From Desulfosudis oleivorans (GTDB lineage: Bacteria; Desulfobacterota; Desulfobacteria; Desulfobacterales; SURF-7), in NCBI GenBank assembly GCA_020723325.1, contig DYJD01000003.1:167822-231821 (forward strand): a stretch of DNA of 64,000 nucleotides, given 5' to 3'. The stretch's first letter is position 1, and each line of letters starts with the position of its first letter. The notes below the pieces were generated by a model. It saw only the letters and a list, made by a program, of their open reading frames with translations, did not search any database and was not told where the DNA came from. The position numbers and the translations under genes are program-made. Positions 2,065 through 25,544 of this stretch are shown here, piece by piece.

Positions 2065-2201
2065 CTAAAGGAGGTTCCCCGCGAAAAAATATTTTCTATA
2101 GTGTTAAGCGCTTGATGCCGCTTTTCAGTTGTGAAACGTTGAAGTTTACCAACAACCGCTTTAATATCGGCAAGTTTCATGTATGTCAACAACTGATGGA
2201 G

Positions 2202-2281: not shown

Positions 2282-2290
2282 TGATGGTGT

Positions 2291-3676: not shown

Positions 3677-6645
3677 GATGCGATTCTTTCTTCATAGGGT
3701 TTGGCTGTGTTGCGGTTTTGTTCGGCGATGATATCCAGGAAAGCGCCGATGCGGGTCTCAAAGCCGGCGTGGGCCGTGTGGGCATCGATTTCCAGATAGC
3801 AGAAGGTTTCTCCGGCAAGTTCCTCGCGGAATTGATGATACATGATGCCGTCCGGCACACAGGAAAAGCAGGACATCATGCACAGGTACAATCGGGGATA
3901 CTCCTTGATATAAGCCAAGGCGTTGGTGACCTGCTGGGTAAAATACCAAACATTTCTAGAGTGGGTTGTTCCATTGAGATTGCGCTGGGGCAGCATGTCC
4001 AGCGGAATGACGTTGTAACCCCGGCTGGTGATTTTGCGCGGCAAGGCCAGATTGGCTTCGGCCGAGCAGATGATGTAGGGTTTGGCCGCAATGACCACCG
4101 TGGGCTCATGGCGCATTTTGGCCAGCATGGCGCGGCCGAAGGCCTGGTAGCGCGTCTGAAAAATCCCGTAATATTCAAGGGCTTTTTGGGCGGCCCGAAT
4201 GCCTTCCTTGGTTTTTAACCCCAGCTTTTGGGCCAGGCGCCCGATTTCGTTGATCAGCCCCTTGATTTTGGCAGCGGAAAAGGCCATGTGGGGTGTGAGC
4301 AATTTAATGCTCAGGCCTTCAAAGGCATCGGCAAAGGCCTGACCGATGAGTTCCGGAACAATACCGGCATTGGCGCAGAAATAGCTGTTTTCAAAGGCGC
4401 TGGGATTGGCCCCGTCCAGAATGAAGGGCATGAATACGTGGTCCACACCACGCTGCAATAAGTCATACACGGCGCCATGGGCCATTTCACAGGGGTAGCA
4501 AATATCGCCGCCGGTCTTGAGATTGCCTGGCTTGGAAGGCTTGGACAACACCACATCATAACCCAATTCGGTGATCAGCCGGGCGTAAAACGGAAAAAAC
4601 TCGAAGGTGGACAAGACCATGGGTATGCCGATGGTGCCCCGGGGGTTTTTCACCGGTTCCGGCCCGAATTCTTCAAACATGATCTTGTTCCTGGCGGCGA
4701 TCATGTCCGTACCTTCAACCAGGTCGTCTTGGCGATGGCGGCTGAGCTCATATTTCGAGCACAACCCGCCGAAGGGATAGGTTTTTTCCCGGATGCTGAT
4801 GCGTTTGATTTCACATTTGTTTTCACAAGTTTTACAAGCGAAGGTGCCCTTGACTTCCATGGCGCCTTTTACCAGATTCTCCAGGCGATAATGGATTTCC
4901 GGCACATCCCCGTTCCGCAGCAGATCCCGTGTGAGCAGACCGTTGCCGATACAGCCCATGAGTTCCGGATGGCCGGGGACCACGATGCGGCGTCGGGTCA
5001 GGGCCGCCATGGCCAGGGCCACCGAGCGGTTCAACGCCACCCCGCCCTGAAAGAGCAGATTTTCGCCCACGGAGCGGGTGCCGACGATGCGGGAGATGTA
5101 GTTCATGGCAATGGAATAGACCAGGCCGGCCACCACATCCTCCGGTAGTGCCCCTTGTTGCAGCGCGTTTCTCAGGTCCGTATTGATGAAGGCCGCGCAA
5201 CGTTCGCCAAAGGAAATGGGTTCCCGGGCCGATTCTGCCGCGGCACTGATGGCGGTCACCGGAATACCCATATCCACGCTCACCGATTCTTCCAGGAAAC
5301 TGCCGGTTCCGGCTGAACAGCCCTCGTTCATGGCATAATCCACCGGCACGCCTTTTAAGAAAGAAATGAATTTGGAGTCCTGCCCGCCGATTTCAAAGAC
5401 CGTATCCACTTCCGGGACTTCCTCGGCCGCGGCCCGGCCGTGGGCCAATATCTCGTTGAAGCTTAAACAATTATCCAGATAAACCGAAACCAGTTCGCGG
5501 CCGGAACCGGTTACCGCCGCCTGGATGATCCGGATGGGCTGGTCACCCACCTGTTGGATCAATTCCTGCAAACATTTTTTGGTGGCCAAAACAGGATTGC
5601 CGTGGGTTCGTAAATAGCAACCGGCGCCGATGCCGCCTGCGGCCACATCAAACAATACCGCCTTGGTGGTGGTGGAGCCGGCATCCACGCCCAGAATATA
5701 GCGCCGGTTGCCTTCGATCCGCATTCGGTCACCGGGTTGCACGCGATAATCCAGCAGGGCCTCTGCTGTTGAAAGGGGCGGCAAAACATCAAAGGCGCTT
5801 CTGTGGATATTGAAACTGGTGCCTGCTTTCCGTCCGGCAGAGGGTTCGGCGTTTTCAGCAGCGTGCAGATAGGCGCCGAAGGCTTCCAGGCAATGGCTTT
5901 CATCCAAAATGATCAGCCTGGAATGGTTGAGCTGCCGGCTTAATATTTCCACAAAGGGTTCATTCAAGGTCAGCCCGCCGGCCAGGACAATGGTGTTCAG
6001 GGGCCAGCGCGCGAGTTCGAGCATTTTACAGATTTTTTGGCTCAAATCCACAATCAGGGATTTGGCGATGTCGGCCGGCGTGCATTCGCCTTTATTCAGC
6101 TTATGGGTGGCATCCGACTTGCAGTACACCGAGCAGCGCGCGGCCAGGGGAACAAGGTTGCCCTTTTTACTGGCCTCGATTCCTTCCGCAAGGGTAAAGT
6201 TCATGCGCTGGAGTTGCTGGACCACGAATTCACCGGTGCCGGCCGCGCATTTGGAAGAGGAAATGACATTCCTGATTTGTCCGTCTTTTACGGTGAGGAC
6301 GGTGAATGTTTCGCCCCCCAGGGACAAGACGATATCCGGTTTGAGATGATAATGGGCCAGGGCTTTTTCAATGCATTCGGTTTCCGGTATATACGGCAGG
6401 CTCAGCATGTTTTTGGCGGACTGGCCGGTGACCATGATCCGGGCCCCTTGGGCGGCAGCCAGCTCGCTGAAGATCTCCTGGAGCTTCTTTGAAGGATTGC
6501 CCTCGTGGCGGATGACTTGTTTTTCCAGGGTTGCATGGCCGCCGCCCCGGACGCGCTTGACCGATACGGCGCCGATTTCAATGCCTTCATACCAGGCCGC
6601 GCTGTTTTCATTCTTGATGAGCGTTACGTTATTCATTTTAATCAA
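3673..6645 (-). CDS. CoA-substrate-specific enzyme activase fusion: two BcrA/BadF/HgdC-type ATPase domains plus C-terminal activase-associated (DUF2229-like) domain
   Basis: 990 aa. The second ATPase domain has a canonical YILGVDAGSTTTKAV phosphate loop. Both domains carry the cluster-ligand motifs of HgdC-type activators: SKCAAGTGEF + ARCSVYC, and EGCSAGTGSF + ERCAAF. The C-terminal part begins TFACKTCENKCEIKRI and contains IGIPMVLSTFEFFPFYARLITELGYDVVLS and GGDICYPCEMAHG. The start is TTG 6645 or ATG 6636, only 26-35 nt after the PKS stop. Confidence 0.8.
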   Translation of the reverse strand: MIKMNNVTLIKNENSAAWYEGIEIGAVSVKRVRGGGHATLEKQVIRHEGNPSKKLQEIFSELAAAQGARIMVTGQSAKNMLSLPYIPETECIEKALAHYHLKPDIVLSLGGETFTVLTVKDGQIRNVISSSKCAAGTGEFVVQQLQRMNFTLAEGIEASKKGNLVPLAARCSVYCKSDATHKLNKGECTPADIAKSLIVDLSQKICKMLELARWPLNTIVLAGGLTLNEPFVEILSRQLNHSRLIILDESHCLEAFGAYLHAAENAEPSAGRKAGTSFNIHRSAFDVLPPLSTAEALLDYRVQPGDRMRIEGNRRYILGVDAGSTTTKAVLFDVAAGGIGAGCYLRTHGNPVLATKKCLQELIQQVGDQPIRIIQAAVTGSGRELVSVYLDNCLSFNEILAHGRAAAEEVPEVDTVFEIGGQDSKFISFLKGVPVDYAMNEGCSAGTGSFLEESVSVDMGIPVTAISAAAESAREPISFGERCAAFINTDLRNALQQGALPEDVVAGLVYSIAMNYISRIVGTRSVGENLLFQGGVALNRSVALAMAALTRRRIVVPGHPELMGCIGNGLLTRDLLRNGDVPEIHYRLENLVKGAMEVKGTFACKTCENKCEIKRISIREKTYPFGGLCSKYELSRHRQDDLVEGTDMIAARNKIMFEEFGPEPVKNPRGTIGIPMVLSTFEFFPFYARLITELGYDVVLSKPSKPGNLKTGGDICYPCEMAHGAVYDLLQRGVDHVFMPFILDGANPSAFENSYFCANAGIVPELIGQAFADAFEGLSIKLLTPHMAFSAAKIKGLINEIGRLAQKLGLKTKEGIRAAQKALEYYGIFQTRYQAFGRAMLAKMRHEPTVVIAAKPYIICSAEANLALPRKITSRGYNVIPLDMLPQRNLNGTTHSRNVWYFTQQVTNALAYIKEYPRLYLCMMSCFSCVPDGIMYHQFREELAGETFCYLEIDAHTAHAGFETRIGAFLDIIAEQNRNTAKPYEERIAS
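3691..4848 (-). other. activase-associated C-terminal domain (DUF2229-like)
   Basis: aa ~600-985. Contains a C-x2-C-x3-C motif (CKTCENKC) followed by conserved IGIP...FFPFY...LGY.VVLS...CYPC blocks. Confidence 0.55.
4921..5700 (-). other. activase ATPase domain 2 (BcrAD/BadFG-like, canonical)
   Basis: aa ~316-575, with LGVDAGSTTTKAVLFD, EIGGQDSKFI, NEGCSAGTGSFLE, GERCAAFINTD and LFQGGVALN. Confidence 0.75.
5860..6588 (-). other. activase ATPase domain 1 (BcrAD/BadFG-like, degenerate phosphate-1 motif)
   Basis: aa ~20-262. GIEIGAVSVK replaces the usual G-x-D-x-G-S-T-x-x-K. The Cys motifs SKCAAGTGEF and ARCSVYCKSD are retained. Confidence 0.6.
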
Positions 6646-6671
6646 CCGTCTTTATGAGTTTCAATTGCATA

Positions 6672-9600
6672 TTATTTCCCCATGGAAGCAAGCCGGGGAA
6701 TCCATTTGCCATCCAACGCCGCTGATATTTTTTGCGAGACAGACCCCGGCCGCGGCCGGCCCGGCAGTTTTCCCCTGGTCGTCATTTTCTTGATGTATTC
6801 GTACTTCATCTTGTTCACCAATTTTTCTTTGGGCGTGTTCTTCTGGATATAATTCACGGCCAGGCAATATTTCATATAGGTTTCCATCAAGGCTTGATTG
6901 ATGCGCGGGCAACGGATGCCCGCCTGCTCAAGGATTGCGGCTGTATAGGTGGCGTCGGCATAGGTGCTTTCATTATGGGGCATCATGGCCGGATTGAATT
7001 GCAGCAGATCCGCGGTCAGGGAATCATATTTGCGGATGTAATCCAGGGAGGCTTTGAATTCGTCAATTTCCAGATAGTTCAACCCGAAACCGCAACCTGC
7101 CAGCAGGTCCATGATTTCCTTGAATGTTTTAGGATGGGGATTATTCAAATGATAGGTCGCGAACACGGTTTTTAATTGGGTGGAAAGGTACACCAGGCTC
7201 TGCCCCACATAGTCGCTGGGGGCGATATCAAAAAATTGGATGGCATTGACGGCGATCTGGTTTTTTACCACGGTTTTAAAAATGTCATAAAAGATCCCTG
7301 GTACTTGGGATTTGCCCAGGGGATAGGTTCCCAGGCGGCTGTCCCCCATGATATTGCCGGGCCTGGCGATGATCCAGCGTAGACCGTGGCCGTGGGCCAG
7401 GCGCACCAGCTTTTCGGCTTCGTATTTGGAACGCGCATAACCGAGATTCTCAAAGCCCTGGCCCACCTGGAAATCCTTTTCCGTATAGGGCCTGGATGCC
7501 GTGAACTGCCGGTCCCCCATGACCACATAGGAGGAAACAAAGACAAAATAGCGTTGGGCGGTGTTTAAGCAGAAATCGATCATGTGCCGGGTGCCGTCCA
7601 CATTGACGACTTTCAACTCCCGGTAGTTCCCGTGCAAGCTGGTTTTGGCGGCACTGTGGATCACCATGTCAACGGATTGAGCCAATTGATGGTATTCCTT
7701 TGCGCTCATTTTCAGATCCGGCTGGATCACGTCACCGACAACCGGGATCACCCGTTGTTCAAACTGTTCGCTCAGCCGCTGGTTCGGGCTATAGATCTGC
7801 AACATCGCGCGGATGCGTTTTTTAGCGTGTTCACGATCCTGGGCTCTGACCAGGCAATAAATCGTGCTATCCGTGTTTTCCAGGAAATCCTTTACCAGCC
7901 TCCCGCCCAGCACACCCGTGGCCCCGGTCAGAAGAATCCGCCGGGTTTGCAGTTCCTTGGCCTGGTGAACAGCGGGAGGGAACAGGTCCGCCTGGTTTGC
8001 TAAAGTGATGGGAATTTCCGGTTGCTCCAAGAATCCGAATTTGTCAGCGGCCGGGTGATCATCATCCGAATCAGCACTCCTTGTTGCGGAATCCGGCTTG
8101 TTTGGCGGGGATGCTTTTTGGGCATCGATGCGCCGGGCCAGCTCCTCCATGCTGGAAGTTTGGATGGATTCGAGGGCCAGCTTGATTCCAAAGGCTTTTT
8201 CAATTTCATTGGCCAGGCGCATGCTGGTGATGGAATCCAAACCATAATCCGCCAAGGCCGTGTCCAAACGGAGGCTGGCTTTATTGATCTTTAACAGGCT
8301 GGAAACTTTTTCCACCAGCAGTGGAACTGTCCGTGATTCAGCCCAAGCGGTTTTCTCAAACCGGATTTCCGGTTGGCGGGCAGGCACGGTTTTGGGAACC
8401 GGCTCCATTCGACTTGGGGCCTGGTCAATGCTTTCAACAGTTATCCAGCAGCGCTCCTTGGCAAAGGGGTAGGCCGGGGCGGAAATCCGGCGCGGCCGCA
8501 GGCCCGGATACAGCAAGTGCCAGTTGATATCCAGGCCGGAAACCCATAGTTTGGCCAGTTTTTGAAATTTTTTGCTGTGGATGATGCTATTGAGAAAGGA
8601 AAGGCCCTCTTCACCATCCAGCAGAAGATCCAGGTCGGTTCCTACACCGCCGTCGCTGTTGATCCAAACCTGCTCAATGTTATGCTCCCCCAGGCAATAG
8701 GCATTCAGCTTGCCGGCCAGATCATCCCAGCCGGAGACGAGCAGGGCGAGTCTTGCCGGCATGGCTTCGCGGCCCACTTGGAAAGTATAGCAAAAATTCG
8801 TCAGGGTTAAGCCTGCGGGCATTATCATGTGAGTTGCAGAGGCAGTCACCCCTTGGGCGGTTTGTTTCATCAAACCATGGTCTTTGAAGAAGTCCAGGAT
8901 GGTTTCCGCATAAGCTTTCAGCCGCTCGGAATTCCTGGCCGAAAGCACGAAGATCCAGGTGCCCAAGGCCGGGTCGGCCTGCTGGACATCATCCCCGGTT
9001 TCAAATTCCTCCACGATCAGGTGGGAATTGGAGCCGCCGGCACCAAAGGAGCTGATGCCCGCGCGCCGGGGGCCGGCGGCATTTTGGCCGTTTTGGGAAA
9101 TCAGCGGCTTTTTCCAGTCCGATAGTTCCGCCTGAAGGTGGAAGGGCGAATTTTTAAAATCGATAAGGGGGTTGACGATCTCGGCATGGAGGGAAGGAAC
9201 CAGTTTTTTGTGCTTCATCTGCAGGATGACTTTGGTCAAGGCCGCCATGCCGGCCGCGGATTCCAGGTGGCCGATATTGGATTTAACCGAGCCGATGGAA
9301 CAATAGCGCTGCCGGCGGCCATCACTATCCTGGGACGGCATGCCTTGTTCAAAGGCGCTGATCAAACCGGCGATTTCGATGGGGTCGCCCAGCGCTGTTC
9401 CGGTGCCGTGGGCTTCCAGGCAACTGATGGTGCGCGGGTCGACATTGGCGCGCTTGAAGGCGTTCAGGATCACCCGGCTTTGGGCCTTGGGATTGGGCAC
9501 TGTGTATCCATTGGTTCTGCCGCCGTGGTTCACGGCGGTGCCTTTGATCACGGCCTGGATGTTGTCGCCGTCGGCTATGGCCCGGCCAAGGGGTTTCAGC

Positions 9601-12600
9601 AATACGGCGCCCACACCTTCACCGGGAACGTAGCCGTCACCACCCTGGCCGAAACTGCGGCAGCGACCGTCACCGGCGATGAAATTCCCCAGGCTCAGCA
9701 GGAGATATTTATTGGGATGGAGGGAGAGGTTGACCCCGCCGGCCACGGCCATGGTGCAGTGGCCGCGCTGAATGCTCTCGCAGGCCAGATGAACGGCGCT
9801 GAGGGATGACGAGCAGGCCGTATCCACCGCCATGCTGGGGCCGGAAAAATTGAAAACATAGGAAACCCGGTTGGCGATGCTCCAGTAGCTTGACGAGGGC
9901 CGGACACCCTGGCCAAACATTTGATATTCCCCCCACATGACCCCCACAAAGACACCGACGGTTTCCTCGGAAAGGCTTGCGCGGGTGTGGCCCGCATCTT
10001 CCAGCGTATGCCAGGCGGTCTGAAGGAACAAGCGCTCCTGGGGGTCCATGTATTCGGCTTCCCGGGGTGAAATATTGAAAAACAAGGGATCAAATTTGTC
10101 CGCATCCTGGATGAAGCCCCCCCATTTGCTTTTGCTTTTTCCCGGCTGCGGGGCGTTTGGGTCGTAGAACTCCTGAAGATCCCAGCGCTCCTTTGGAATT
10201 TCCGTTATGCAATCTTTTCCGTTCACCAGGTTCCGCCAGAAGATCTCCACATTGTCTGCCAGGGGATATCGTCCGCTCAGGCCGACAACGGCGATATCCT
10301 CGTCCGCTGCTTGAGGGTTTTGGGCCGTGGCATGACGGAATTGATTTACCGGTTTTGGATTCATTGGAGAAGATTCCGGGGTTTTTACTTCCCGCAGATA
10401 AGTGTTTTCCGGACTTTTCAAGGCTGCCGGCGGATTTTGATGCCCCATGGTTGCAACCACCTTTTCAGGATGACGTTTGATAAAATAGTCGGCCAAATCG
10501 ACAAGATTGGAATATTCAAAAAAAAGCGTTTTGGGTATTTCGCCGAAATGCTTTTCCAATCTCACATTCAGCCGCATGATCATCAACGAATCGATTCCGA
10601 ATTTTTCAAAGGGCGTGTCGGCCCGGACCCTGGCTGGATCGAGTTTGGTCGCGGCGCACAGCTCTTTTTTCAAAAAGTCGGTCAGCCGTTCCTTCCATTC
10701 CATTGGTGTTGATGAAAGGTCCGGCGCGGCGCCTTTGCCAAAAACCTCAAGGCCGGAAACGGCCGGTTTTTCTTCCTTCCGGTTGAAAAGCCCCTGCTCC
10801 TGTTCCATGGGGGCACTTCCTGCAATTACAGCAAGCTGGGGGCCTTTATAGGTCAAGGCATATTCAAAGGCCTGGATGCCGGCTGCTGAATTCAAGGACA
10901 AAAGCCCGAAGACTTCTTGAAAATGGTTTTGCAGGGCCGCAGCATGGCCCATACCGCCCTGTTGCCACAGGGGCCAGTTTATGGCGAGGGTTTTTCCATG
11001 GCGCCGGCCTTTGCGCCGCAAGCGTTCCCGCCACACGGCAAAATGATCGAGATAACTGTTGGCATAGGCGTAATCGCTTTGGCCGCTATTGCCGAACACT
11101 GCTGCCAATGACGAAAACAGAATAAAAAAATCCAGGTTTTCATTTTTGGTAAAAACATCCAGATAGCGCGTGCCCGACACCTTGGGCGCCAAAACCGCTT
11201 GAATTTCGGCTTTGGTTTTTCGCAGAACAAAGGCGTCCTTGCTCACCCCGGCGCAATGCAGGATGCCGTTGATGGCGTGATGTTTTGATTTGACTTCCGC
11301 GACCAGACGTTTCACTTCCAAGGGTCTGGCGATATCGGCTTGGATGTATTCCACGGTGGCCCGGCCCCAATCCATTTGGGAAATACGGGCTGAAATGTCC
11401 GGGCTGAATTTCGAGCGTCCCACCAGGATCACTGTTCCTTGGGTTTTTTTCGCAAGGTATTCGGCAAATATCATTCCCAGGCGACCGGCACCGCCAGTGA
11501 TCAAGTAAATGCCCTTTGGGCGGAAGGCAATTGCAGAGGATGGGCCGTCCGCCTCCACCGGTTTGAGTGCTTTGGTATAGCGGTGGTCATTAAGATAGCG
11601 GATGTCGGCCGGTTCTGAGAAGGACATTTGAAATTCATTTACAATCAGCCGGGCCGTTTGCCAAGGAGCCTTGTTCACGCCTTGGCCGGAAGTAGTTTTC
11701 AGCGTGAGGGTTTTATAGCGGTAATTTGGATTTTCCTGATAAATCGTTTTGACAAGCCCGGACATGGCGGCCCAATGGGGGGCCATGTCCGTTTGTAATG
11801 GATATACATAGATCAGATCGACCTTGTTTTGCAGCCTGCTTGCCATCAGTGCCTGGGTTAAGAAAAAGACGGAATAAAAACCATGGGCCAAGCGGCGGCC
11901 CAATGCTGCCGGGGCCCGGCCGACCCTGGATTTGCTCCAATTATGAATGATTCCGATGCGGCTTTCCGGATCAAGGCCCAGAACCTTGATGAATTCCCCG
12001 TAGTTTTCACTTTCTTCCGGATTAAGGCTGAAATGACTTGCCCCTTTTTGCTGAAAGCGTTCATCAGCAGTAACCAGGATGATTTTTATCGCAAGGTTTT
12101 GGTCTTTCAGGAGTTGTTCCAAAGCATCCCGGAGATCGCCATCCGTATCCAGCAGCAGGATGGTTTGCAGGTTCTTGATTTCCGTGGTTGCAATTGTGCT
12201 TTCCGCTTTTTTCCATAGGAAATGGTAGTAGTATTGGGGCGGGTTGTCATCCCATGCTGGGGGTTCCTGGATCGCTTTAACACAAAAATTTTTGATGGAA
12301 ACCAGGGGATTGCCCTCAATATCCAGCAGGCGGATATGGAATTTCTTAACCTCGGCATGCAATTGTCTACCACTGTCGGCAACGGTGGCGTAGGCAAAAC
12401 AGGTTTCCGGCAATTCCCCCAGGATTTCCAACTCCTCAATTCCCATGGGAAGAAATAATTTTTCAGAATGGGCGCCGTTACCCTGGGACAGCAAGCCGAT
12501 CACGGTTTGAAAGGCGCCGTCGATCAAGATGGGATGAAGGGGATAATGTTTCAGGCTCGACTTCAAGTGCTGCGGCAGCTTCAGTTGCGCCAGGGATTCA

Positions 12601-15600
12601 TTGTGGTTGCTGAACAATTCCTGAATGGGTTGAAAATTCGGTCCGTAATTGAGTCCGGCATCGGAAAAGAGCGCATAGCATTCGGAACCGCTCTTGCGCC
12701 TGCTGCAGCGCCCCTTGATGGTTTCAATATCCAGGCCGGCCGGCTGATATCGCCGGTCATACACCAGCCGGCCCTTGGAGAACATTGTCGCCCCATCCGG
12801 ATCTGCTTCCGTGCTGAATTGAAACCGGGCGGCATTTTCTTCAGATGATAAATGCAAATGCACTTCCCGGGGGGCTGCCGCAATCTGAATGGGCCTGGCC
12901 CAAACCACATCCTGCAGTTTGCGCACCCGTCCATCCTTGAACTGTTCCGCCAACGCACGCGCCATTTCAAGATACATGGCGCCGGGCAGCACTTTGGCCT
13001 GGCCGATTTTATGATCGGCAATGTAAAATTCATCGCCTTTAACTTGGAGCGAATACTTGTTTGCGCGGGCGTCAAAGGCGTGGCCCGCACCAAATGCTTG
13101 AAACACGGAATCCATTTCAGCCGCAGCAGGGGCAATGTTGTCCGCGGCATCAGCGGCCTGGACCCAATAGCGGGTCTTGGCAAACGGATAGGTCGGCAGC
13201 GGCATGCGCTTGACCGCTTCGCTGCCGTGCAAGCGCCGCCAATCGATCGCCCGGCCGCTTACCCAGCTTCGGGCGATTGCAGGCAAATCCCCATAATCAA
13301 CAGGGGCGTTTCCGTCCGGCCTTTGGGTGTCTTCATTTAGGCCTGGATCATGGGCTTGAACCCTTCCCTTGAAAAAGCGTTCATCCTGGAAATCATCCGT
13401 GTTTAAATACGCACGCAGCAACCCGGCCAGTTCGGTCTTGCTTGCGACCAGCCATGCTGCTCTTGCCGCCATGGCTTCCCGGCCGCTCTGCAAGGTCCAG
13501 GCCATGTCCGCCAGTGAAAATCGGCTTGGATCGTCCGGCCCGGCTTTTTCAATAAAGTCCAGCAGGTCTTCCACATAGCAGCGCAGCCGGGCTTCATCCC
13601 CGGCTGACAGGATGATCAGTTGCTTGGATGGAGTGGCCGGCCGGGTTGCGCCTGGGGCGGAGTCAGCCGGAATGATATATTCTTCCAAAACCGCATGGGC
13701 ATTGACACCGCCGAAGCCGAAGGAGCTGATGCCGGCCCGGTGTGGAATCTCTTGATTCTTTTCATCACGGAGCCGGTCCCAGGTTTTGGTTTTTTCCACA
13801 ACGTAGAAGGGCGTATCCGCAATATCGATATAAGGATTCAGCTTTTTGAAATGGATGCCGGCCGGCAGTTTGCCGTGTTTCAGGGCCAAAACCAGCTTGA
13901 TTAGCCCGGCGATCCCGGCGGCGGTCTCCAGATGCCCGATATTGGTTTTCACTGAACCCAGCCCGCAGCGGGCTTCCCCGGCAAAGGCTTTGTTCCCTTG
14001 GGCATACAGGCGGCTGAAGGCCTTGACCAGGCCTTGGATTTCAGCCGGATCACCAAGGGCCGTCCCGGTGCCGTGGGTTTCAATATAGGTTATGGTGGCG
14101 GGATCGATCCCCGCTTTTTCCACTGCGTCCACAATCAGGGCCGCCTGGGCATTCACATTGGGCGCGGTGATGGACTGGGCCTTGCCGCCATGATTGACAG
14201 CCGTGCTTTTGATCACGGCGTAAATAAAATCCCGGTCTTTTTCCGCCGCAGCTAATGGCTTGAGTAAAACCGCACCCACGCCTTCACCACGGACATAGCC
14301 GTCGGCAGCCATATCAAAGGTTTTGCATTTGCCGTCCGCGGCCAACATGCCGGCACAGTTGAAGGCAATGTTCAGGGTGGGGGTCAGCATCACATTCACG
14401 CCGCCGGCCAGGGCCATGGAGCAGGTCCCACTGCGGATGGCCTCAACCGCCCGGTGCAAGGCCACCAGGGAGCTGGAGCAGGCGGTATCCACCGGCTCGC
14501 TTGGGCCGTGCAAATTCAGCATATAGGAAATACGATTGGCCAGGATGGAATGGGAAAGCCCGGTGGCGGTATAGGCATCCACCGGAATACCGCTGTTGTG
14601 GACGAGCTCCGCATAATCCGAGGTGCCAACACCCACAAAAACACCGATCTTCATGTCGGCAAGACTTCCGGGCCGATAGCCGGCATTTTCAATGGTGTGC
14701 CACGCGGTTTGCAAAAAAAGCCGCTGCTGGGGGTCCATCAACTCCGCTTCATGGGGGGTGATCCCGAAAAACCTGGCGTCGAAAGCCGCCACATGGTCCA
14801 TGAACCCGCCCCATTTGGCCGTGGTTTTGTTGTTTTCCTTGAGGGGCGTACCATAGCGGGCCTGCCAATCCCAGCGCTCCTTGGGAACGACGCTGATCAG
14901 ATCATGACCGCATTCAAGATGATTCCAAAAGGCCTCCAGATCCTTTGACTGGGGCATGCGCCCGCTTATGCCGATGATGGCGATGGCATCCGCCTGCTGA
15001 CCGGTCTTGAATTCAGCGGCGGCCCTTGAGTGGGGGAGCTTCTGTTCCCGGACAGGCGCCGGCTTTGTCAGGTGATTCGTCACCAGGTAATGACCAAAGG
15101 CGGCCAGGCTCTGATGCTCAAAAAACACGGCCGGTTTCAATGCCACCCCATATTTCCGGTTGACTGCCGTTGTGATTTTGATCAAGGCAAGGGAGGTGAA
15201 GCCATATTCGCCGATGTTTCTTTCAATATCCAGTTCTTGGGGTTTTATTTTCAGTACGCCGGCGGCAATCCGCCTGAGTTCAGCCAGTACTTGGCCTGGA
15301 TCAATCACCGGGTCCGGCCCTGAACCATCGGGCTGGTAAGCGCCGGTGGAAAATAATTCCTGGTCAATCAGTTTTGCCAGGCGCTCCATGCCCTGATCAA
15401 ACTCACCGGCCAAATAATCCTTGCGAAGCTTGGCGCGCTGCAATTTGCCGCTGGTGGTTTTGGGAATGCGCTCAACGGGGATGATCTGTTTGATGGTGAT
15501 TCCGATTTTGGCCTGAATGCAATGGTGCAGCTTCACAGCCAGGGGAACCATGGCGTTAAGGTTCATGGTCTTGTCGGCGATGAAGACAAGCAGTTCGTCT

Positions 15601-17993
15601 TCTTTGGCCTGGTGGTTGAAAACACCCACGGCGGCGATTTGTCGGTTTTCATTTTCCAATGACTGTTGCAGCGTGTTTTCGATGTCATGGGAGTAGTAGT
15701 TGAGACCGCCGACGAAAATGATATCCTTTTCCCGGCCGGTGACAATCAGACGGCCGTTCTGGAAAAAGCCGAGATCGCCGGTGACAAACCAACCAGCGCT
15801 TGTGAAAGCCGCTTGGGTGGCTGCTTGGTTTTGAAAATAGCCGGAGGTTACATTGGCGCCCTTGATTTGGATGCGGCCGATGCAGCCGTCCGGCAGGGGG
15901 CGGTCTTGTCCGTCGACGATACGAACCGAGACATGCGGCAACGGCCGGCCCAGGTCCACAAAATGAATGCCCTGGGGATGTTGGCTGTCAACATGGACGA
16001 CTTGGTCTCCAAGGCCCACCTGATTTCGATCCAAGCGCACGGATTGAAGCCCTTGGCCCGGATGGGGGAAGCTGACGGCCAGGGTCGCCTCGGCCAAGCC
16101 GTAAACCGGATACATGACGCCTGGCTTCAAGCCAAAGGGCGCCAGCTTTTCCAAAAAATCCTGGGCCAGTTCATAGGAAATGGGCTCGGCGCCGTTGAAA
16201 ATCAATTTGACGCAAGCAAGATCCAGATCCGGCGGTTTATTGGCGGCGTCCTGCTCCTGGGTGAACAGCTTTAGAAAATGGTTGAGCCCGGAGTTGGGGG
16301 AAGCCAAATAGGTGGCCTTATGCCTTGCGGCAAGTTCCAGCCATTTGGTGGGAAAAAGTAAAAAAAGCACTGTGGGCGCCAGGATTTGATTGATGCCGAT
16401 AAAAGTGGGAAACAAATGAAAGCCGATCAGGCCCATATCATGGGTCAACGGCATCCAGGAAAAAGTTTTATTGGAGGCTGCATGGCAAGGGGCCAGCCCC
16501 CAGCCGATATCCGCAAGATTGGTGATCAGATTCCCATGGGTCAACATCACTCCCTTGGGCTCGCCGGTGGTGCCCGAGGAAAACTGGATCAGGGCCGGAT
16601 TTTCGGGGGCGGCAGGATGAATCCTTCCGAGGTTTTCCGGGGCATAGTCGATTTCGTCTAAAACAACTGCTTTTTCTTGAATTTCACGGAGCGCGTTTTC
16701 AAAATTATTTTTAGCGGCAAACTCCTCCAAACCGGCCAATCGGTTTCGGGAAGTCAGGATATATTTCTGTTCCAGGATATCCCAAATCTTGAACACTTTT
16801 AACAGGTGGTCCGAATGGTTGCGCACCTCCACCGGCACCGGCAAAAAACCGCCCAAAACACAGGCCCAGAAGGCGATCACAAAATTATTTTCCGATTCAA
16901 TCTGAAAGACCACCTGGTCATGAGGCCCTATGCCTTTGGCTTGGAGTCTGTGCAGCAGTTTGCGCGCCGCTTTGTAAATATCATGATAGGAATGGAAAAC
17001 TTCTTTCACGGTGAAAGTGGCCGGGTCGGGCGTGAGAAAGGTGATGCCGAGTTCGGTATTCTCTCCGGCCCGGATAAAGACATCCGTCAGGGTTTTATAC
17101 CGGCTTGTTTCTTGTTCATCTTGCGCAAAAGAAGCCCGAATGTTTTTGACAAATTTGGTGAGCGGTTTTGCTTTGCCGATTTCCACAAACTGAACTTCCC
17201 CTTGGCGGAGCACGTACAGAATACTGTCCTTCCAGCGCACCGGGGCGGTAATCTGCCCGGCCAGGGTTTGTTTCAGTTCCAAGTGTTTGTACGGTCCGGC
17301 ATGGGTATTGGCAATCACCGGCAGGGTCAACGCGGAAAATTCAAATTCATTGAGAAAGCGTTCAAATTCCTTGGCCGCGGCAGCCATATGGGGGGAGTGA
17401 AAGGCGCCGCCGACATTAAGGCGGACATAGTGTTCCGCGCCCGCGGCCCTGAAAAACGGTTCGGCTGTTGTAATCTGGGCCGCATCACCGGATATCACGG
17501 TTTGCGACAAGGAATTTTCGTTGGCGATATATAGCGAATCCAGTTGATGAGAGCGGAGCACTTCATGGACGGCGGCCGGAGCCAGTCCCAGCACGGCGGC
17601 CATGGCGCCGCCGGCTGCGGCGGCCATTAATTCCGCTCTTTTTTTCACCAACCTGAGCCCGGTTTCAAAATCAAAGACGCCGGCTGCCAGCAGGGCATTA
17701 TATTCGCCCAGGCTGTGCCCCAGGGCAAAATCAACGGCCGCCGGCTGTTGTTCGATATATTCCAAATAGTGAAAAGTGTTGATGATAAAGATCGCCGGCT
17801 GGGCAAAGCGGGTTTGCCCCAGGGCATTGCCGGGATTGGCAAGGCAAATCTCCTTGATGGAATAACCCAACAGTTCATCGGCTTTTTGGGTCAGGGTCTG
17901 GTATTTATCAAACAGCGCAAGGCCCATGCCCTGCTGTTGCGTGCCTTGTCCTGGGAATAGTAATGCAACCATAACTACCGTTTCTGCAACCAT
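6672..17993 (-). CDS. type I polyketide megasynthase, AT-FAAL-ACP-KS-DH-KR-ACP-KS-ACP-R (3773 aa)
   Basis: One uninterrupted 11.3-kb ORF with ordered catalytic motifs. AT: GHSLGE. Acyl-AMP ligase: FSSGTTGEPKGV, GREKDIIFVGGLNYYSHDIE and PKTTSGKLQR. ACP: GFTSL. KS: DTACSSS, HGTGT and NIGHLE. DH: HKIGQAKVLP. KR: LITGGAGRLG and SDYAYAN. ACP: GIDSL. Second KS: DTACSSS, HGTGT and NIGHLE. ACP: GLDSI. Thioester reductase: LLTGATGVLGG and YARSKYEAE. Confidence 0.95.
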   Translation of the reverse strand: MVAETVVMVALLFPGQGTQQQGMGLALFDKYQTLTQKADELLGYSIKEICLANPGNALGQTRFAQPAIFIINTFHYLEYIEQQPAAVDFALGHSLGEYNALLAAGVFDFETGLRLVKKRAELMAAAAGGAMAAVLGLAPAAVHEVLRSHQLDSLYIANENSLSQTVISGDAAQITTAEPFFRAAGAEHYVRLNVGGAFHSPHMAAAAKEFERFLNEFEFSALTLPVIANTHAGPYKHLELKQTLAGQITAPVRWKDSILYVLRQGEVQFVEIGKAKPLTKFVKNIRASFAQDEQETSRYKTLTDVFIRAGENTELGITFLTPDPATFTVKEVFHSYHDIYKAARKLLHRLQAKGIGPHDQVVFQIESENNFVIAFWACVLGGFLPVPVEVRNHSDHLLKVFKIWDILEQKYILTSRNRLAGLEEFAAKNNFENALREIQEKAVVLDEIDYAPENLGRIHPAAPENPALIQFSSGTTGEPKGVMLTHGNLITNLADIGWGLAPCHAASNKTFSWMPLTHDMGLIGFHLFPTFIGINQILAPTVLFLLFPTKWLELAARHKATYLASPNSGLNHFLKLFTQEQDAANKPPDLDLACVKLIFNGAEPISYELAQDFLEKLAPFGLKPGVMYPVYGLAEATLAVSFPHPGQGLQSVRLDRNQVGLGDQVVHVDSQHPQGIHFVDLGRPLPHVSVRIVDGQDRPLPDGCIGRIQIKGANVTSGYFQNQAATQAAFTSAGWFVTGDLGFFQNGRLIVTGREKDIIFVGGLNYYSHDIENTLQQSLENENRQIAAVGVFNHQAKEDELLVFIADKTMNLNAMVPLAVKLHHCIQAKIGITIKQIIPVERIPKTTSGKLQRAKLRKDYLAGEFDQGMERLAKLIDQELFSTGAYQPDGSGPDPVIDPGQVLAELRRIAAGVLKIKPQELDIERNIGEYGFTSLALIKITTAVNRKYGVALKPAVFFEHQSLAAFGHYLVTNHLTKPAPVREQKLPHSRAAAEFKTGQQADAIAIIGISGRMPQSKDLEAFWNHLECGHDLISVVPKERWDWQARYGTPLKENNKTTAKWGGFMDHVAAFDARFFGITPHEAELMDPQQRLFLQTAWHTIENAGYRPGSLADMKIGVFVGVGTSDYAELVHNSGIPVDAYTATGLSHSILANRISYMLNLHGPSEPVDTACSSSLVALHRAVEAIRSGTCSMALAGGVNVMLTPTLNIAFNCAGMLAADGKCKTFDMAADGYVRGEGVGAVLLKPLAAAEKDRDFIYAVIKSTAVNHGGKAQSITAPNVNAQAALIVDAVEKAGIDPATITYIETHGTGTALGDPAEIQGLVKAFSRLYAQGNKAFAGEARCGLGSVKTNIGHLETAAGIAGLIKLVLALKHGKLPAGIHFKKLNPYIDIADTPFYVVEKTKTWDRLRDEKNQEIPHRAGISSFGFGGVNAHAVLEEYIIPADSAPGATRPATPSKQLIILSAGDEARLRCYVEDLLDFIEKAGPDDPSRFSLADMAWTLQSGREAMAARAAWLVASKTELAGLLRAYLNTDDFQDERFFKGRVQAHDPGLNEDTQRPDGNAPVDYGDLPAIARSWVSGRAIDWRRLHGSEAVKRMPLPTYPFAKTRYWVQAADAADNIAPAAAEMDSVFQAFGAGHAFDARANKYSLQVKGDEFYIADHKIGQAKVLPGAMYLEMARALAEQFKDGRVRKLQDVVWARPIQIAAAPREVHLHLSSEENAARFQFSTEADPDGATMFSKGRLVYDRRYQPAGLDIETIKGRCSRRKSGSECYALFSDAGLNYGPNFQPIQELFSNHNESLAQLKLPQHLKSSLKHYPLHPILIDGAFQTVIGLLSQGNGAHSEKLFLPMGIEELEILGELPETCFAYATVADSGRQLHAEVKKFHIRLLDIEGNPLVSIKNFCVKAIQEPPAWDDNPPQYYYHFLWKKAESTIATTEIKNLQTILLLDTDGDLRDALEQLLKDQNLAIKIILVTADERFQQKGASHFSLNPEESENYGEFIKVLGLDPESRIGIIHNWSKSRVGRAPAALGRRLAHGFYSVFFLTQALMASRLQNKVDLIYVYPLQTDMAPHWAAMSGLVKTIYQENPNYRYKTLTLKTTSGQGVNKAPWQTARLIVNEFQMSFSEPADIRYLNDHRYTKALKPVEADGPSSAIAFRPKGIYLITGGAGRLGMIFAEYLAKKTQGTVILVGRSKFSPDISARISQMDWGRATVEYIQADIARPLEVKRLVAEVKSKHHAINGILHCAGVSKDAFVLRKTKAEIQAVLAPKVSGTRYLDVFTKNENLDFFILFSSLAAVFGNSGQSDYAYANSYLDHFAVWRERLRRKGRRHGKTLAINWPLWQQGGMGHAAALQNHFQEVFGLLSLNSAAGIQAFEYALTYKGPQLAVIAGSAPMEQEQGLFNRKEEKPAVSGLEVFGKGAAPDLSSTPMEWKERLTDFLKKELCAATKLDPARVRADTPFEKFGIDSLMIMRLNVRLEKHFGEIPKTLFFEYSNLVDLADYFIKRHPEKVVATMGHQNPPAALKSPENTYLREVKTPESSPMNPKPVNQFRHATAQNPQAADEDIAVVGLSGRYPLADNVEIFWRNLVNGKDCITEIPKERWDLQEFYDPNAPQPGKSKSKWGGFIQDADKFDPLFFNISPREAEYMDPQERLFLQTAWHTLEDAGHTRASLSEETVGVFVGVMWGEYQMFGQGVRPSSSYWSIANRVSYVFNFSGPSMAVDTACSSSLSAVHLACESIQRGHCTMAVAGGVNLSLHPNKYLLLSLGNFIAGDGRCRSFGQGGDGYVPGEGVGAVLLKPLGRAIADGDNIQAVIKGTAVNHGGRTNGYTVPNPKAQSRVILNAFKRANVDPRTISCLEAHGTGTALGDPIEIAGLISAFEQGMPSQDSDGRRQRYCSIGSVKSNIGHLESAAGMAALTKVILQMKHKKLVPSLHAEIVNPLIDFKNSPFHLQAELSDWKKPLISQNGQNAAGPRRAGISSFGAGGSNSHLIVEEFETGDDVQQADPALGTWIFVLSARNSERLKAYAETILDFFKDHGLMKQTAQGVTASATHMIMPAGLTLTNFCYTFQVGREAMPARLALLVSGWDDLAGKLNAYCLGEHNIEQVWINSDGGVGTDLDLLLDGEEGLSFLNSIIHSKKFQKLAKLWVSGLDINWHLLYPGLRPRRISAPAYPFAKERCWITVESIDQAPSRMEPVPKTVPARQPEIRFEKTAWAESRTVPLLVEKVSSLLKINKASLRLDTALADYGLDSITSMRLANEIEKAFGIKLALESIQTSSMEELARRIDAQKASPPNKPDSATRSADSDDDHPAADKFGFLEQPEIPITLANQADLFPPAVHQAKELQTRRILLTGATGVLGGRLVKDFLENTDSTIYCLVRAQDREHAKKRIRAMLQIYSPNQRLSEQFEQRVIPVVGDVIQPDLKMSAKEYHQLAQSVDMVIHSAAKTSLHGNYRELKVVNVDGTRHMIDFCLNTAQRYFVFVSSYVVMGDRQFTASRPYTEKDFQVGQGFENLGYARSKYEAEKLVRLAHGHGLRWIIARPGNIMGDSRLGTYPLGKSQVPGIFYDIFKTVVKNQIAVNAIQFFDIAPSDYVGQSLVYLSTQLKTVFATYHLNNPHPKTFKEIMDLLAGCGFGLNYLEIDEFKASLDYIRKYDSLTADLLQFNPAMMPHNESTYADATYTAAILEQAGIRCPRINQALMETYMKYCLAVNYIQKNTPKEKLVNKMKYEYIKKMTTRGKLPGRPRPGSVSQKISAALDGKWIPRLASMGK
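6834..7946 (-). other. PKS domain: terminal NAD(P)H-dependent thioester reductase (R/TD)
   Basis: aa ~3350-3720. Motifs are RILLTGATGVLGGRL, VIHSAA and the catalytic GYARSKYEAEK (Tyr/Lys). No thioesterase is present. Confidence 0.85.
8124..8342 (-). other. PKS domain: ACP3
   Basis: aa ~3218-3290, with LADYGLDSITSM (Ser3254). Confidence 0.8.
9006..10301 (-). other. PKS domain: KS2 (Cys-His-His intact)
   Basis: aa ~2565-2996. The triad is VDTACSSS (Cys2727; DNA checked at 9827-9804), EAHGTGT (His2862) and SNIGHLE (His2909). It is followed by an AT-less linker ending SAPAYPFAKERCW. Confidence 0.9.
10470..10700 (-). other. PKS domain: ACP2
   Basis: aa ~2432-2508, with FEKFGIDSLM (Ser2469; DNA checked at 10589-10587). 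Confidence 0.8.
10809..12191 (-). other. PKS domain: ketoreductase (KR, structural + catalytic subdomains)
   Basis: aa ~1935-2395, with the Rossmann motif GIYLITGGAGRLG and the catalytic region SSLAAVFGNSGQSDYAYAN. Confidence 0.8.
12264..13106 (-). other. PKS domain: dehydratase (DH)
   Basis: aa ~1630-1910. Carries the HxxxGxxxxP motif ADHKIGQAKVLPG (His1661) and a downstream HPILIDGAFQ. Confidence 0.75.
13683..14990 (-). other. PKS domain: KS1 (Cys-His-His intact)
   Basis: aa ~1002-1437. The triad is DTACSSS (Cys1172; DNA checked at 14489-14469), ETHGTGT (His1307) and NIGHLE (His1354). It is followed by an AT-less linker ending PLPTYPFAKTRYW. Confidence 0.9.
15078..15305 (-). other. PKS domain: ACP1
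   Basis: aa ~897-972, phosphopantetheine site GEYGFTSL (Ser934). Confidence 0.75.
15396..17096 (-). other. PKS domain: fatty acyl-AMP ligase-type adenylation (loading) domain
   Basis: aa ~300-866. Motifs are FSSGTTGEPKGVMLTH, YGLAEATL, GWFVTGDLGF, TGREKDIIFVGGLNYYSHDIE and KTTSGKLQR. Confidence 0.8.
17139..17972 (-). other. PKS domain: N-terminal acyltransferase (FabD/malonyl-CoA:ACP transacylase-like)
   Basis: aa ~8-285. Motifs are LLFPGQGTQ, GHSLGEYNAL (Ser94) and GAFHSPHM. Confidence 0.85.
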
Positions 17994-18224
17994 TCAAACA
18001 TGGAATGGGTAGGGACTACCACAAGATCTTGCTATGTTTTGAAACAGCAACAACAAAACATAATGCTTCAAAACAGAGCGACATTCCTGTATAAATGCTG
18101 CCGCACTGCTGATTTTAGATTAAAATAGTGCTATATAGCAGAAAAAACAAATGAATTTAAAAATATGAAATCCCCTGGGATGGCTTGTATTGAAATAGGG
18201 ATGGAGAGTCAATATGAAAAAGTG

Positions 18225-18252
18225 TTTCATGAAAATTTCTGTTTTAACATGA
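18225..18252. promoter_or_regulatory. candidate operator, site B: TTTCATGAAA-a-TTTCTGT-tttaa-CATGA, ~230 nt upstream of the PKS start
   Basis: Contains the perfect 10-bp palindrome TTTCATGAAA plus TTTCTGT plus a second CATGA half-site. The same composite motif is found at 20576-20603. Confidence 0.4.
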
Positions 18253-20575: not shown

Positions 20576-20603
20576 TTTCATGAAACGTTTCTGTGTTTCA
20601 TGA
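20576..20603. promoter_or_regulatory. candidate operator, site A: TTTCATGAAA-cg-TTTCTGT-g-TTTCATGA, in the divergent region between the 745-aa gene and the ADH gene
   Basis: Contains the perfect palindrome TTTCATGAAA (20576-20585). TCATGAAAC (20578-20586) and GTTTCATGA (20595-20603) form a 9-bp inverted repeat with an 8-nt spacer. Confidence 0.4.
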
Positions 20604-20721
20604 TAAAACAGATATTTCACGAAAACACATAAAATATTTGACATGATTCATGATACACCATAGTAGCCTTAGACAAAAAAATCAAACTGAATTTTTCGAA
20701 AAAACCCCAGGAGAAGCGATT

Positions 20722-21897: not shown

Positions 21898-21922
21898 AAA
21901 CCAAAAAAGAAAGGAAGTCAAA

Positions 21923-22336
21923 ATGGGATTATTTGCCAATAGTGAAGATTTTGAAAAGGTGATTGTCGGTTTTTTCAACCTGGTGGCCGAGACCCCGGAG
22001 GTCGCGGATAAACTGCTGGCCTCCAAACTGGTGATCCGCTTCAATTATCATGATCCGGAAGTGGTGGTGGTGGTGGACTGCTCCCAGGAAAAAATCCAGG
22101 TACGGTCAGGCGACAAAGAGGCCCAAGCCATTGTGGAAATGAGCATGAGCGCGGATATCGCGCACAAGTTCTGGTTCGGCAAGGTCAACTTGACCATGGC
22201 CCTGGCCAGGCGGCAGATGATCGCCAAAGGTCCGGTGCCGAAAATATTAAAACTGCTGCCGGCCATCCGGCCGACCTATACCATGTATCCGCGGTATCTG
22301 GATACAAGCGGGCACAGCAACTACAATGTTCATTAA
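21923..22336 (+). CDS. SCP2 (sterol/lipid carrier protein-2-like) domain protein
   Basis: MGLFANSEDFEKVIVGFFN...VIRFNYHDPEVVVVVDC...FWFGKVNLTMALARRQMIAKG has the typical SCP2 fold signature. GAAAGGAAG lies upstream of ATG 21923. Confidence 0.7.
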   Translation: MGLFANSEDFEKVIVGFFNLVAETPEVADKLLASKLVIRFNYHDPEVVVVVDCSQEKIQVRSGDKEAQAIVEMSMSADIAHKFWFGKVNLTMALARRQMIAKGPVPKILKLLPAIRPTYTMYPRYLDTSGHSNYNVH

Positions 22337-22352
22337 ACAAGGAGGGCAATTC

Positions 22353-25531: not shown

Positions 25532-25544
25532 AACAATGCGATCG

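Follow-up and report, generated by a model that had tools for sequence, protein, structure and literature searches.

A predicted two-module trans-AT-type polyketide synthase encoded with a putative PlsA/PlsR/Ger-type enzyme pair in a Desulfobacterota genome

Characterised members of the PlsA/PlsR/Ger group of enzymes reduce the ester carbonyl of a lipid to a vinyl ether or an ether (PMC12838417, PMC13159169). The plasmalogen synthase PlsA/PlsR is split over two genes in Clostridium perfringens (PMC12838417), and the glycerol ester reductase Ger, whose homologues occur in Deltaproteobacteria and Asgard archaea, converts sn-1 esters to alkyl ethers under anoxic conditions (PMC13159169). The architecture termed 'BBD' consists of two BcrAD/BadFG domains and DUF2229 (PMC13159169). 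In a 64,000-nucleotide stretch of a Desulfosudis oleivorans assembly (GCA_020723325.1, contig DYJD01000003.1, positions 167,822 to 231,821; hereafter the window), we found genes for a putative pair of this kind directly downstream of a gene encoding a large polyketide synthase (PKS). An earlier note on this DNA, made from the letters alone, had drawn attention to this megasynthase and had read its domains as acyltransferase (AT), fatty acyl-AMP ligase (FAAL), acyl carrier protein (ACP), ketosynthase (KS), dehydratase (DH), ketoreductase (KR), ACP, KS, ACP and terminal reductase (R). We consider it reasonably probable that the three genes form a cassette, in which a working compact two-module trans-AT-type PKS is combined with a PlsA/PlsR/Ger-type pair that acts on its product. 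The trans-AT architecture itself is known, and its fused one-polypeptide form appears to be rare; what is uncharacterised, and may prove important, is the coupling of the PKS with PlsA/Ger-type enzymes.

All three genes lie on the minus strand. The megasynthase gene (6672-17993) is separated by 27 nt from the gene for a 990-aa protein (3673-6645), and the start of the gene for a 461-aa protein (2291-3676) overlaps the stop of the latter by 4 nt; this gap and this overlap imply one transcript. The earlier note had stated that no thioesterase (TE), phosphopantetheinyl transferase (PPTase), transporter or MbtH-like gene is adjacent. Annotation of the neighbouring genes agrees that none of these adjoins the megasynthase gene, but the conserved PlsA/PlsR/Ger-like pair downstream had been missed.

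The 990-aa protein matches the BcrAD/BadFG ATPase (activase) family PF01869 in two stretches, and PF09989 (DUF2229) over residues 671-885. It also scores above the cutoff of TIGR00241, 'acyl-CoA dehydratase activase' (195 bits versus 125), and its residues 316-575 match the structure of the activator HadI (4eht, 3e-28). The 461-aa protein gave nothing significant in Pfam or PDB sequence searches. An AlphaFold (AF2) model of it, built from 33 homologues, has a pLDDT of 90. When this model was searched with Foldseek, the only matches at E <= 0.001, among the matches listed (n=19), were a double-cubane cluster protein (DCCP), benzoyl-CoA reductase (BzdNO), 2-hydroxyisocaproyl-CoA dehydratase (HadBC) and MbdON. 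As modelled, the 461-aa protein has the fold of the catalytic subunits of 2-hydroxyacyl-CoA dehydratases (HAD) and benzoyl-CoA reductases (BCR), and Cys84, Cys119 and Cys398 are invariant in its family. The model, the Foldseek matches and the synteny described below suggest a catalytic-subunit-like protein of the HAD/BCR/double-cubane family, which would be a PlsR-like second subunit. Judged from domain content, the pair has the organisation of the PlsA/PlsR/Ger ether-lipid synthases, with the 990-aa protein as the predicted 'BBD' core. The 461-aa family has the same spread, over Deltaproteobacteria and Asgard archaea, as has been described for Ger, and its homologues number at least 131 proteins, far more than the PKS-linked members. 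Homologues with 35-39% identity are abundant in Asgard archaea (metagenome-assembled genomes (MAGs) of Loki-, Thor-, Heimdall-, Hermod- and Promethearchaeota).

A search with the 461-aa protein returned three close relatives, comprising one identical protein and two with 72% and 71% identity. The identical protein (window/L166) is encoded on a 382-kb NCBI contig and on a 24-kb Logan contig. In locus L164, a 3751-aa PKS, whose Pfam matches open with Acyl_transf_1, AMP-binding, PP-binding and ketoacyl-synt, is followed by a 987-aa protein with BcrAD_BadFG and DUF2229 domains and then by a 461-aa protein. The cassette in locus L165 has the same layout, with the PKS clipped by the contig end. The PKS parts of both loci are colinear with that of the window and 53-58% identical to it (75-76% in the second KS, KS2), and the two proteins encoded downstream are about 71% identical (71% for the 990-aa protein in both loci). 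The DH, KR, ACP2, KS2, ACP3 and R motifs are all conserved in these orthologues, and the retention of catalytic motifs in proteins that are only 53-58% identical argues for selection on activity. Both loci also have a downstream gene for a protein of 176-183 aa, which has no Pfam match and no similarity to the SCP2-like protein of the window, and which is absent from the window.

In L173 (Logan SRR34261158, 1-13825), which represents a more distant lineage, the cassette has a larger counterpart. Its PKS has 6172 aa, and the last 1233 residues comprise a KS, a RhiE-like linker, an ACP and an R domain. This terminal module, over the final 1214 residues, is colinear with residues 2560-3730 of the window protein at 46% identity (KS 61%, R 50%). 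The PKS gene is followed by genes for a radical SAM/SPASM protein, a 2-oxoacid_dh-type acyltransferase, the activase (54% identical to the 990-aa protein), a ferredoxin-like protein, a 452-aa homologue of the 461-aa protein (44% identical), two hydrolases and a 4HBT thioesterase. The position of the ferredoxin gene between the two subunit genes would fit an enzyme that has to be supplied with electrons. (The ferredoxin-like product is a membrane-anchored Cys-rich Fer4 protein, and the hydrolases are an alpha/beta hydrolase and a GDSL lipase.) Each of the four informative loci (window/L166, L164, L165 and L173) thus has the pair downstream of a PKS gene whose product terminates in KS-ACP-R. We left L167 and L168-L170 out of this count, since the contig or locus stops at or inside the activase. 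In L168-L170 (Syntrophaceae-type, 2736-9826), about 7 kb with restriction-modification, GmrSD and IS110 transposase genes lies between the genes for the activase and a 450-aa subunit, and the pair is followed by genes for a radical SAM protein and a 1031-aa FAD-oxidase/CCG protein.

The megasynthase gene is, as previously claimed, a single uninterrupted open reading frame (ORF) of 3773 codons, with no internal stop in its translation; the earlier note gave no strand for it. Its start codon is uncertain: M1 (3773 aa) is used in NCBI and M23 (3751 aa) in Logan, and M8 is possible. A start at M23 would lose the GQG motif in the FPGQGTQ region of the AT, and a start at M8 gives a canonical-looking FabD N-terminus. 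Pfam and NCBIfam profile searches recovered the ten domains in the order given above, and returned no aminotransferase, condensation or amino-acid adenylation domain in the 3773-aa protein.

The following coordinates all refer to the minus strand. The AT (residues 8-286; 17136-17972) is genuine by profile search (TIGR00128 fabD, 286 bits versus a cutoff of 260.9). Its motifs are FPGQGTQ (13-19), GHSLGE (92-97, with Ser94), Arg119 and GAFHS (196-200, with His199), and profile and motifs agree with the malonyl-type AT that had been proposed. The FAAL-type acyl-AMP ligase that forms the loading domain (residues 330-866; 15396-17006; AMP-binding 1.7e-52) has the core motifs SSGTTGEPKG, WMPLTHDMG, GREKD and TTSGKLQR, and the loading carrier ACP1 (residues 905-970; 15084-15281) is directly downstream, with Ser934 in a GFTSL motif at 931. 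The corresponding motifs are GIDSL at 2466 in ACP2 (residues ~2437-2504; 10482-10685) and GLDSI at 3251 in ACP3 (residues 3225-3292; 8118-8321). Both KS domains keep the Cys-His-His triad reported in the earlier note. In KS1 (residues 1002-1440; 13674-14990) the triad is Cys1172, His1307 and His1354, and in KS2 (residues ~2565-2993; 9015-10301) it is Cys2727, His2862 and His2909; DTACSSS is located at 1169 and 2724, HGTGT at 1307 and 2862, and NIGHLE at 1351 and 2906.

The DH (residues 1646-1910; 12264-13058) has HKIGQAKVLPG at 1661 (His1661, Pro1670), LNYGPNF at 1781 and DGAFQ at 1825 (Asp1825-x3-Gln). The KR (residues 1944-2344; 10962-12164) has GGAGRLG at 2167 and the Ser/Tyr/Asn residues within 2294-2312. 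Its stereo-motif, which had been left for inspection, has Asp2252 at the LDD position, so the KR is of the B type. The C-terminal R domain, a predicted NAD(P)H thioester reductase (residues 3353-3715; 6849-7937), exceeds the TIGR01746 cutoff (233 bits versus 213), and has intact nucleotide and catalytic motifs (TGATGVLGG at 3356; YARSK at 3519, that is Tyr3519-x3-Lys3523), which upholds the proposed reductive terminus. The nearest solved structure is the MxaA reductase (4u7w, 2e-48). A basic tail of about 58 aa follows the R domain (6675-6848), and is conserved in L164 and L165 but not in L173.

The earlier note also emphasised that neither KS module has an AT. There is indeed no cis AT, but this is not an anomaly, since trans-AT PKSs are defined by just this layout. 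Each KS is followed by an AT-less flanking subdomain, a RhiE-like/CurL-like linker that matches PF22336 (99 bits versus a cutoff of 27 after KS1) and PF22621. The subdomain after KS1 (13158-13673) ends in PLPTYPFAKTRYW at residues 1598-1610 and that after KS2 (8442-9014) ends in SAPAYPFAKERCW at residues 3171-3183, so both of the post-KS motifs quoted previously could be located. In a PDB search, KS1 with its linker (residues 1001-1620, 620 aa) can be aligned along its whole length with structures of trans-AT KSs, including the 7zma bimodule (1e-301), bacillaene PksJ (4e-185) and entries named 'AT-less polyketide synthase', and cis-AT KS structures score far below these. The PDB entries nearest to the AT are 6mhp (1e-84), PksC (1e-80), and PksE and DisD (about 1e-76), with housekeeping FabDs more distant (1e-33 to 1e-48), and its best matches in the protein database, with about 50% identity, are AT-ER and AT-AT proteins named 'trans-AT polyketide synthase'. 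The AT is not free-standing: it belongs to the same ORF, 44 residues ahead of the ligase, and the Pfam matches of the L164 orthologue likewise open with Acyl_transf_1. These profiles and alignments identify the megasynthase as a two-module trans-AT-type PKS with its AT fused ahead of the loading module.

The leading position of the AT, which the earlier note had stressed, is confirmed, but this arrangement is already known in unfused form and is present here as a gene fusion. Many Bacillus and Paenibacillus loci have an AT gene directly upstream of a FAAL-ACP-KS gene. For example, in Bacillus siamensis (L028) a gene for a 399-aa FabD-type AT lies 20 nt upstream of a gene for a 3982-aa FAAL-KS-NRPS protein (NRPS, nonribosomal peptide synthetase), which is the iturin/bacillomycin arrangement. 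Caldimonas brevitalea and Methylobacterium indicum, among others, have stand-alone AT-ligase-ACP proteins (about 1000 aa, about 30% identity). In L082, a metagenomic locus (JGI 3300032212, 1011-11490), the stop of an AT-ligase-ACP gene lies 1 nt ahead of a large PKS gene. The tridomain gene of L082 is divergent from genes for PabAB-like (chorismate-binding/aminotransferase IV, GATase) and AurF-like N-oxygenase proteins, and the locus appears to encode a trans-AT PKS that takes p-amino- or p-nitrobenzoate as its starter. A reversed ligase-AT fusion was found in L081.

To estimate how rare the fused form is, we rely on an HMMER search of residues 1-900 against 1.84 billion representative proteins, in which AT and ligase were both strongly matched only in the megasynthase's own cluster. 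The remaining listed matches (<=654 bits) have the ligase at the N-terminus, deep in a longer multi-module protein or after a domain other than an AT. Two candidates for a leading AT, P0375 and P0341, in which the FAAL is not N-terminal, were rejected, as they have a glycosyltransferase or nothing recognisable in that place. A protein search with the N-terminal 1000 aa returned proteins of at most 1536 aa, and not even the identical protein was among them, so this route is apparently blind to megasynthases. Pattern scans of genomes and metagenomes gave only generic relatives (<=45% identity) among the matches listed, of which only L011 has an R domain (28% identity, in a cis-AT layout), and a megablast search of plasmids gave no match. 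The earlier note did not recognise the domain order from any characterised pathway; in agreement, no characterised cluster with this order was found in the sequence collections or in the searchable literature.

The domains allow a pathway to be proposed. The FAAL-type ligase would activate a free carboxylic acid as its adenylate and load it onto ACP1 without CoA; this acid is most likely a fatty acid. The AT would charge ACP2 and ACP3 with malonyl units. KS1 would then join the starter to malonyl-ACP2, and the B-type KR and the DH would turn the beta-keto group into a trans-2-enoyl group. Condensation of the enoyl chain with malonyl-ACP3 by KS2 would give a (4E)-3-oxo-alk-4-enoyl-ACP3, which would be left at the 3-oxo stage because module 2 has no reducing domains. 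The colinear logic of the earlier note (two C2 units added to a starter, with an enoyl group left by module 1 and a beta-keto group by module 2) thus fits the profile and motif evidence. The MxaA-like R domain would release an aldehyde, possibly reduced on to the alcohol. The MxaA reductase itself takes its thioester all the way to the alcohol in a four-electron reduction. From a chemical standpoint, a free 3-oxo-4-enal would enolise, and oxa-Michael cyclisation could give a 2-alkyl-dihydropyran-4-one. The 3-oxo-4-enal or alcohol named in the earlier note is the most likely released form but, given the radical pair conserved in the cassette, it is probably not the end product. By analogy with PlsA and Ger, the pair would be an ATP-driven, iron-sulfur, low-potential radical enzyme that acts on the PKS product or a conjugate of it. 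Most likely it would catalyse a low-potential reduction or dehydration at a carbonyl, either of the product itself or of an ester or hemiacetal formed from it, and so equip an anaerobic member of the Desulfobacterota with a specialised lipid that is ether-linked or deoxygenated.

Several observations weigh against this proposal. The coupling of PKS and pair rests on synteny in four informative loci, which represent three or four lineages, and the pair may be no more than an ordinary synthase of membrane ether lipids that shares a transcript with the PKS. No PPTase gene is present in the 64-kb window, ACP1 has GFTSL where DSL is usual, and two homopolymer frameshifts in a nearby MBOAT gene (see below) could reflect assembly errors or decay of the region. 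Finally, the PDB entries nearest to the ligase are the A (adenylation) domain of 6ulw/6ulx (9e-89) and McyG A-PCP (3e-87), and the FAAL structures from Legionella, E. coli and mycobacteria are weaker matches (3e-58 at best).

The ligase result in particular raises the question of the starter. Because solved FAALs are less close to the ligase than are the 6ulw A domain and McyG, which loads phenylpropanoids, the starter may be something other than a fatty acid. The loader might instead take an arylalkanoic, short-chain, keto or hydroxy acid, and the product would then be a small functionalised polyketide and not a long-chain lipid. The top NCBIfam matches of the ligase are FAAL families that all stay under their cutoffs (PRK09192, fatty acyl-AMP ligase, 321 versus 600 bits), and the PabAB and AurF genes beside the AT-ligase-ACP fusion of L082 imply an aromatic starter in that locus. 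However, the ligase shows higher identity (41-48%) to the loading domains of iturin-type and related loci. These domains are its nearest sequence relatives, and we take them to activate fatty acids. In addition, the segment that aligns with the insertion of the Legionella FAAL 3kxw is present in the ligase and, as far as a sequence alignment alone can tell, is longer than in McyG, which is gapped and partly lacks it. Annotation by profile search also revealed no genes for the biosynthesis of a starter acid within the cassette. We therefore regard a different starter as a serious but rather unlikely alternative. A fatty acid, as proposed in the earlier note, is retained as the best guess but not as a certainty, as the ligase is closer to McyG and 6ulw than to textbook FAALs.

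A second alternative leaves the PKS as described and concerns the pair, which might be a membrane ether-lipid or plasmalogen synthase (Ger/PlsAR) that works on ordinary glycerolipids and never touches the polyketide. The 'BBD' architecture and the spread of the family over Deltaproteobacteria and Asgard archaea fit Ger homologues (PMC13159169), and the family of at least 131 proteins is far larger than its PKS-linked set. Moreover, the pair is better conserved than the PKS (71% versus 53-58%), as a housekeeping enzyme would be. Against this, the adjacency to KS-ACP-R holds in four of four informative loci, including L173, where the pair is only 44-54% identical and the PKS differs in size. L173 also interleaves other tailoring genes (for radical SAM, acyltransferase, ferredoxin and hydrolase proteins), and the spacing of the genes in the window implies a single transcript of PKS and pair. 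On balance we judge a purely membrane-directed role of the pair to be unlikely. A third alternative is a line that is not colinear: KS2 or module 2 might pass the chain on without extending it, or R might be non-reductive (Dieckmann/Claisen-type), and the product would then have another length or be cyclic. Trans-AT PKSs frequently contain non-elongating modules and depart from colinearity, and the Dieckmann-type R* domains of fungal PKS-NRPSs classically act on a beta-keto thioester. This alternative is quite improbable here, as KS2 retains Cys-His-His with the histidine of HGTGT, which is missing from non-elongating KS0 domains, and as R keeps TGxxGxxG and Tyr-x3-Lys in all orthologues and is nearest to the reductive MxaA domain.

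The genes that surround the cassette provide some context for the proposal of a PKS whose product is processed by the pair. Nearby genes for an aldehyde:ferredoxin oxidoreductase (AOR), an iron-containing alcohol dehydrogenase (Fe-ADH) and a BCR-type ATPase indicate that the host is an anaerobe, probably one of the Thermodesulfobacteriota, and the nearest named relatives of the neighbouring proteins are from Syntrophales, Desulfobacterales, Desulfatibacillum and Smithellaceae. A divergent operon (20650-24230, plus strand) encodes the Fe-ADH, an SCP2 lipid-carrier-like protein and the AOR, which is of the tungsten type; these products could handle a lipid aldehyde released by R. In L165, two Fe-ADH genes lie downstream of the cassette, and the product of one is 40% identical to the Fe-ADH of the window, so aldehyde-handling enzymes may be loosely associated with the cassette. 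A near-palindrome, TTTCATGAAAC, occurs at 18224-18234, within the 339-nt region upstream of the PKS gene. It has just one further exact copy in the window, at 20576-20586 between the 745-codon gene described below and the Fe-ADH gene, and a near copy at 20595-20605. The restriction of exact copies to these two regions hints at shared regulation, and the element is, speculatively, a candidate shared operator. With up to one mismatch, it has 11 matches in the window versus 2.6 expected. Inverted repeats of the AAAACAGA type lie near the TTTCATGAAAC sites.

Upstream of the PKS gene, the 745-codon gene (18333-20570, minus strand) encodes a protein without Pfam or NCBIfam match. It belongs to a very large, length-conserved family (about 742 aa, 44-49% identity), which is apparently confined to Desulfobacterota-type MAGs and some of whose members are labelled TPR proteins by JGI. 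We rejected it as a cluster member, since the family is Desulfobacterota-wide and a relative with 66% identity has an MFS gene and no PKS gene adjacent. On the other side of the cassette is a DltB/AlgI-like MBOAT gene (637-2065, minus strand) with two frameshifts, one near a T7 run at ~1950 and one in an A9 run at ~1462-1470; it is either a pseudogene or affected by assembly errors in homopolymers. Beyond it, an ORF (3-668, minus strand) of at least 222 aa has an N-terminal hydrophobic segment and no Pfam match, and runs off the window. The Fe-ADH-SCP2-AOR operon is bordered by a mobile or decayed patch (24748-26099) with a PIN-domain toxin gene, upstream of which a MazE-type antitoxin was called in L166, and beside it a remnant of an IS200-like Y1 transposase and a short OEP fragment. 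A run of genes at 36947-41827 (minus strand) encodes two class-III aminotransferases, an Amidohydro_2 protein and alanine dehydrogenase; it was also rejected as part of the cluster, as it lies about 19 kb from the PKS gene with unrelated genes between. Scans of the window for tRNAs and Rfam families gave no matches.

The megasynthase probably converts a fatty acid into a longer reduced lipid. A broader and more tentative idea, which we regard as possible, is that R-terminated trans-AT PKSs and PlsA/Ger-type radical enzymes form an unrecognised partnership in anaerobes, in which the assembly line supplies a 3-oxo-enal or enol-type lipid and the radical enzyme turns it into polyketide-derived vinyl-ether, ether or deoxygenated lipids. 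Literature searches found no paper that links PKSs with PlsA/Ger-type enzymes, and no precedent for an AT-FAAL-ACP or trans-AT FAAL-reductase architecture. If the idea is true, it would for the first time connect the assembly-line synthesis of polyketides with chemistry of the benzoyl-CoA reductase/2-hydroxyacyl-CoA dehydratase type, and the conserved partnership suggests that anaerobes could tailor polyketides by ketyl-radical or low-potential chemistry. Bacterial ether-lipid synthases matter for the debate on the 'lipid divide' and for sediment lipid biomarkers, and a PKS-fed branch of their family could explain unusual ether and keto-ol lipids of anoxic environments. The megasynthase is also of interest in itself. 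Apart from the PPTase, a single polypeptide would contain all that is needed, including an AT of its own, a loader that works without CoA and a domain for reductive release. Such a minimal, self-contained trans-AT system is attractive for studies of mechanism and for the engineering of fatty aldehydes and alcohols. An AT tethered covalently to its assembly line also bears on how trans-ATs find their ACPs.

Among known systems, the initiation of iturin, mycosubtilin and bacillomycin synthesis (FenF/ItuD AT with MycA/ItuA FAAL-ACP-KS) likewise places a FabD-type AT directly before FAAL-ACP-KS, with a FAAL that is 41-44% identical to the ligase of the megasynthase, and with a KS that has no AT of its own and that is about 46% identical to KS1. 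However, the iturin-type AT is a separate protein and only 30-35% identical to that of the megasynthase, which is fused and falls in the trans-AT PKS clade. Furthermore, iturin-type synthesis continues with transamination of the chain and then with NRPS modules and a TE, whereas the megasynthase has a DH-KR module, a second KS and predicted reductive release. The canonical trans-AT PKSs (bacillaene PksC/PksE/PksJ, disorazole DisD and Brevibacillus 7zma) share the KS with an AT-less flanking subdomain, include the closest solved relatives of the AT and KS, and use one AT to serve several modules. The megasynthase differs from them in that the AT is its first domain, and in that it has only two modules, a FAAL start and an R end. 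The AT-ligase-ACP tridomain proteins (of Caldimonas brevitalea, Methylobacterium indicum and L082) have the same N-terminal domain order, but are separate polypeptides with about 30% overall identity, and L082 apparently uses an aromatic starter. The terminal reductase of MxaA (myxalamid synthetase, 4u7w) has the same SDR-type TGxxGxxG and YxxxK motifs; it ends an NRPS module, whereas the R domain of the megasynthase follows a KS-ACP module that is expected to present a beta-keto thioester.

As for the pair, PlsA/PlsR of C. perfringens and Ger of Thermotoga maritima and Desulfatibacillum alkenivorans are alike in architecture, with two BcrAD/BadFG domains and DUF2229 followed by a HAD-like part. 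PlsA/PlsR shares the split into two genes and has a similar combined size (1451 aa for our pair). These enzymes, like the cassette, are found in anaerobes, but they have not been reported beside a PKS. Finally, heterocyst glycolipid aglycones are 3-keto-1-ol and 1,3-diol lipids that are released reductively. Their synthesis, and that of the myxobacterial ElbD system, resembles the proposed pathway in a long chain with oxygen at C3 and a reduced C1, and in PKS or ligase-ACP-R logic. This is a resemblance only, since those systems use other enzyme families and domain orders, occur in aerobic organisms and have no HAD/BCR-type partner. The elb cluster does, however, tie a reductase domain to ether lipids (PMC13159169).

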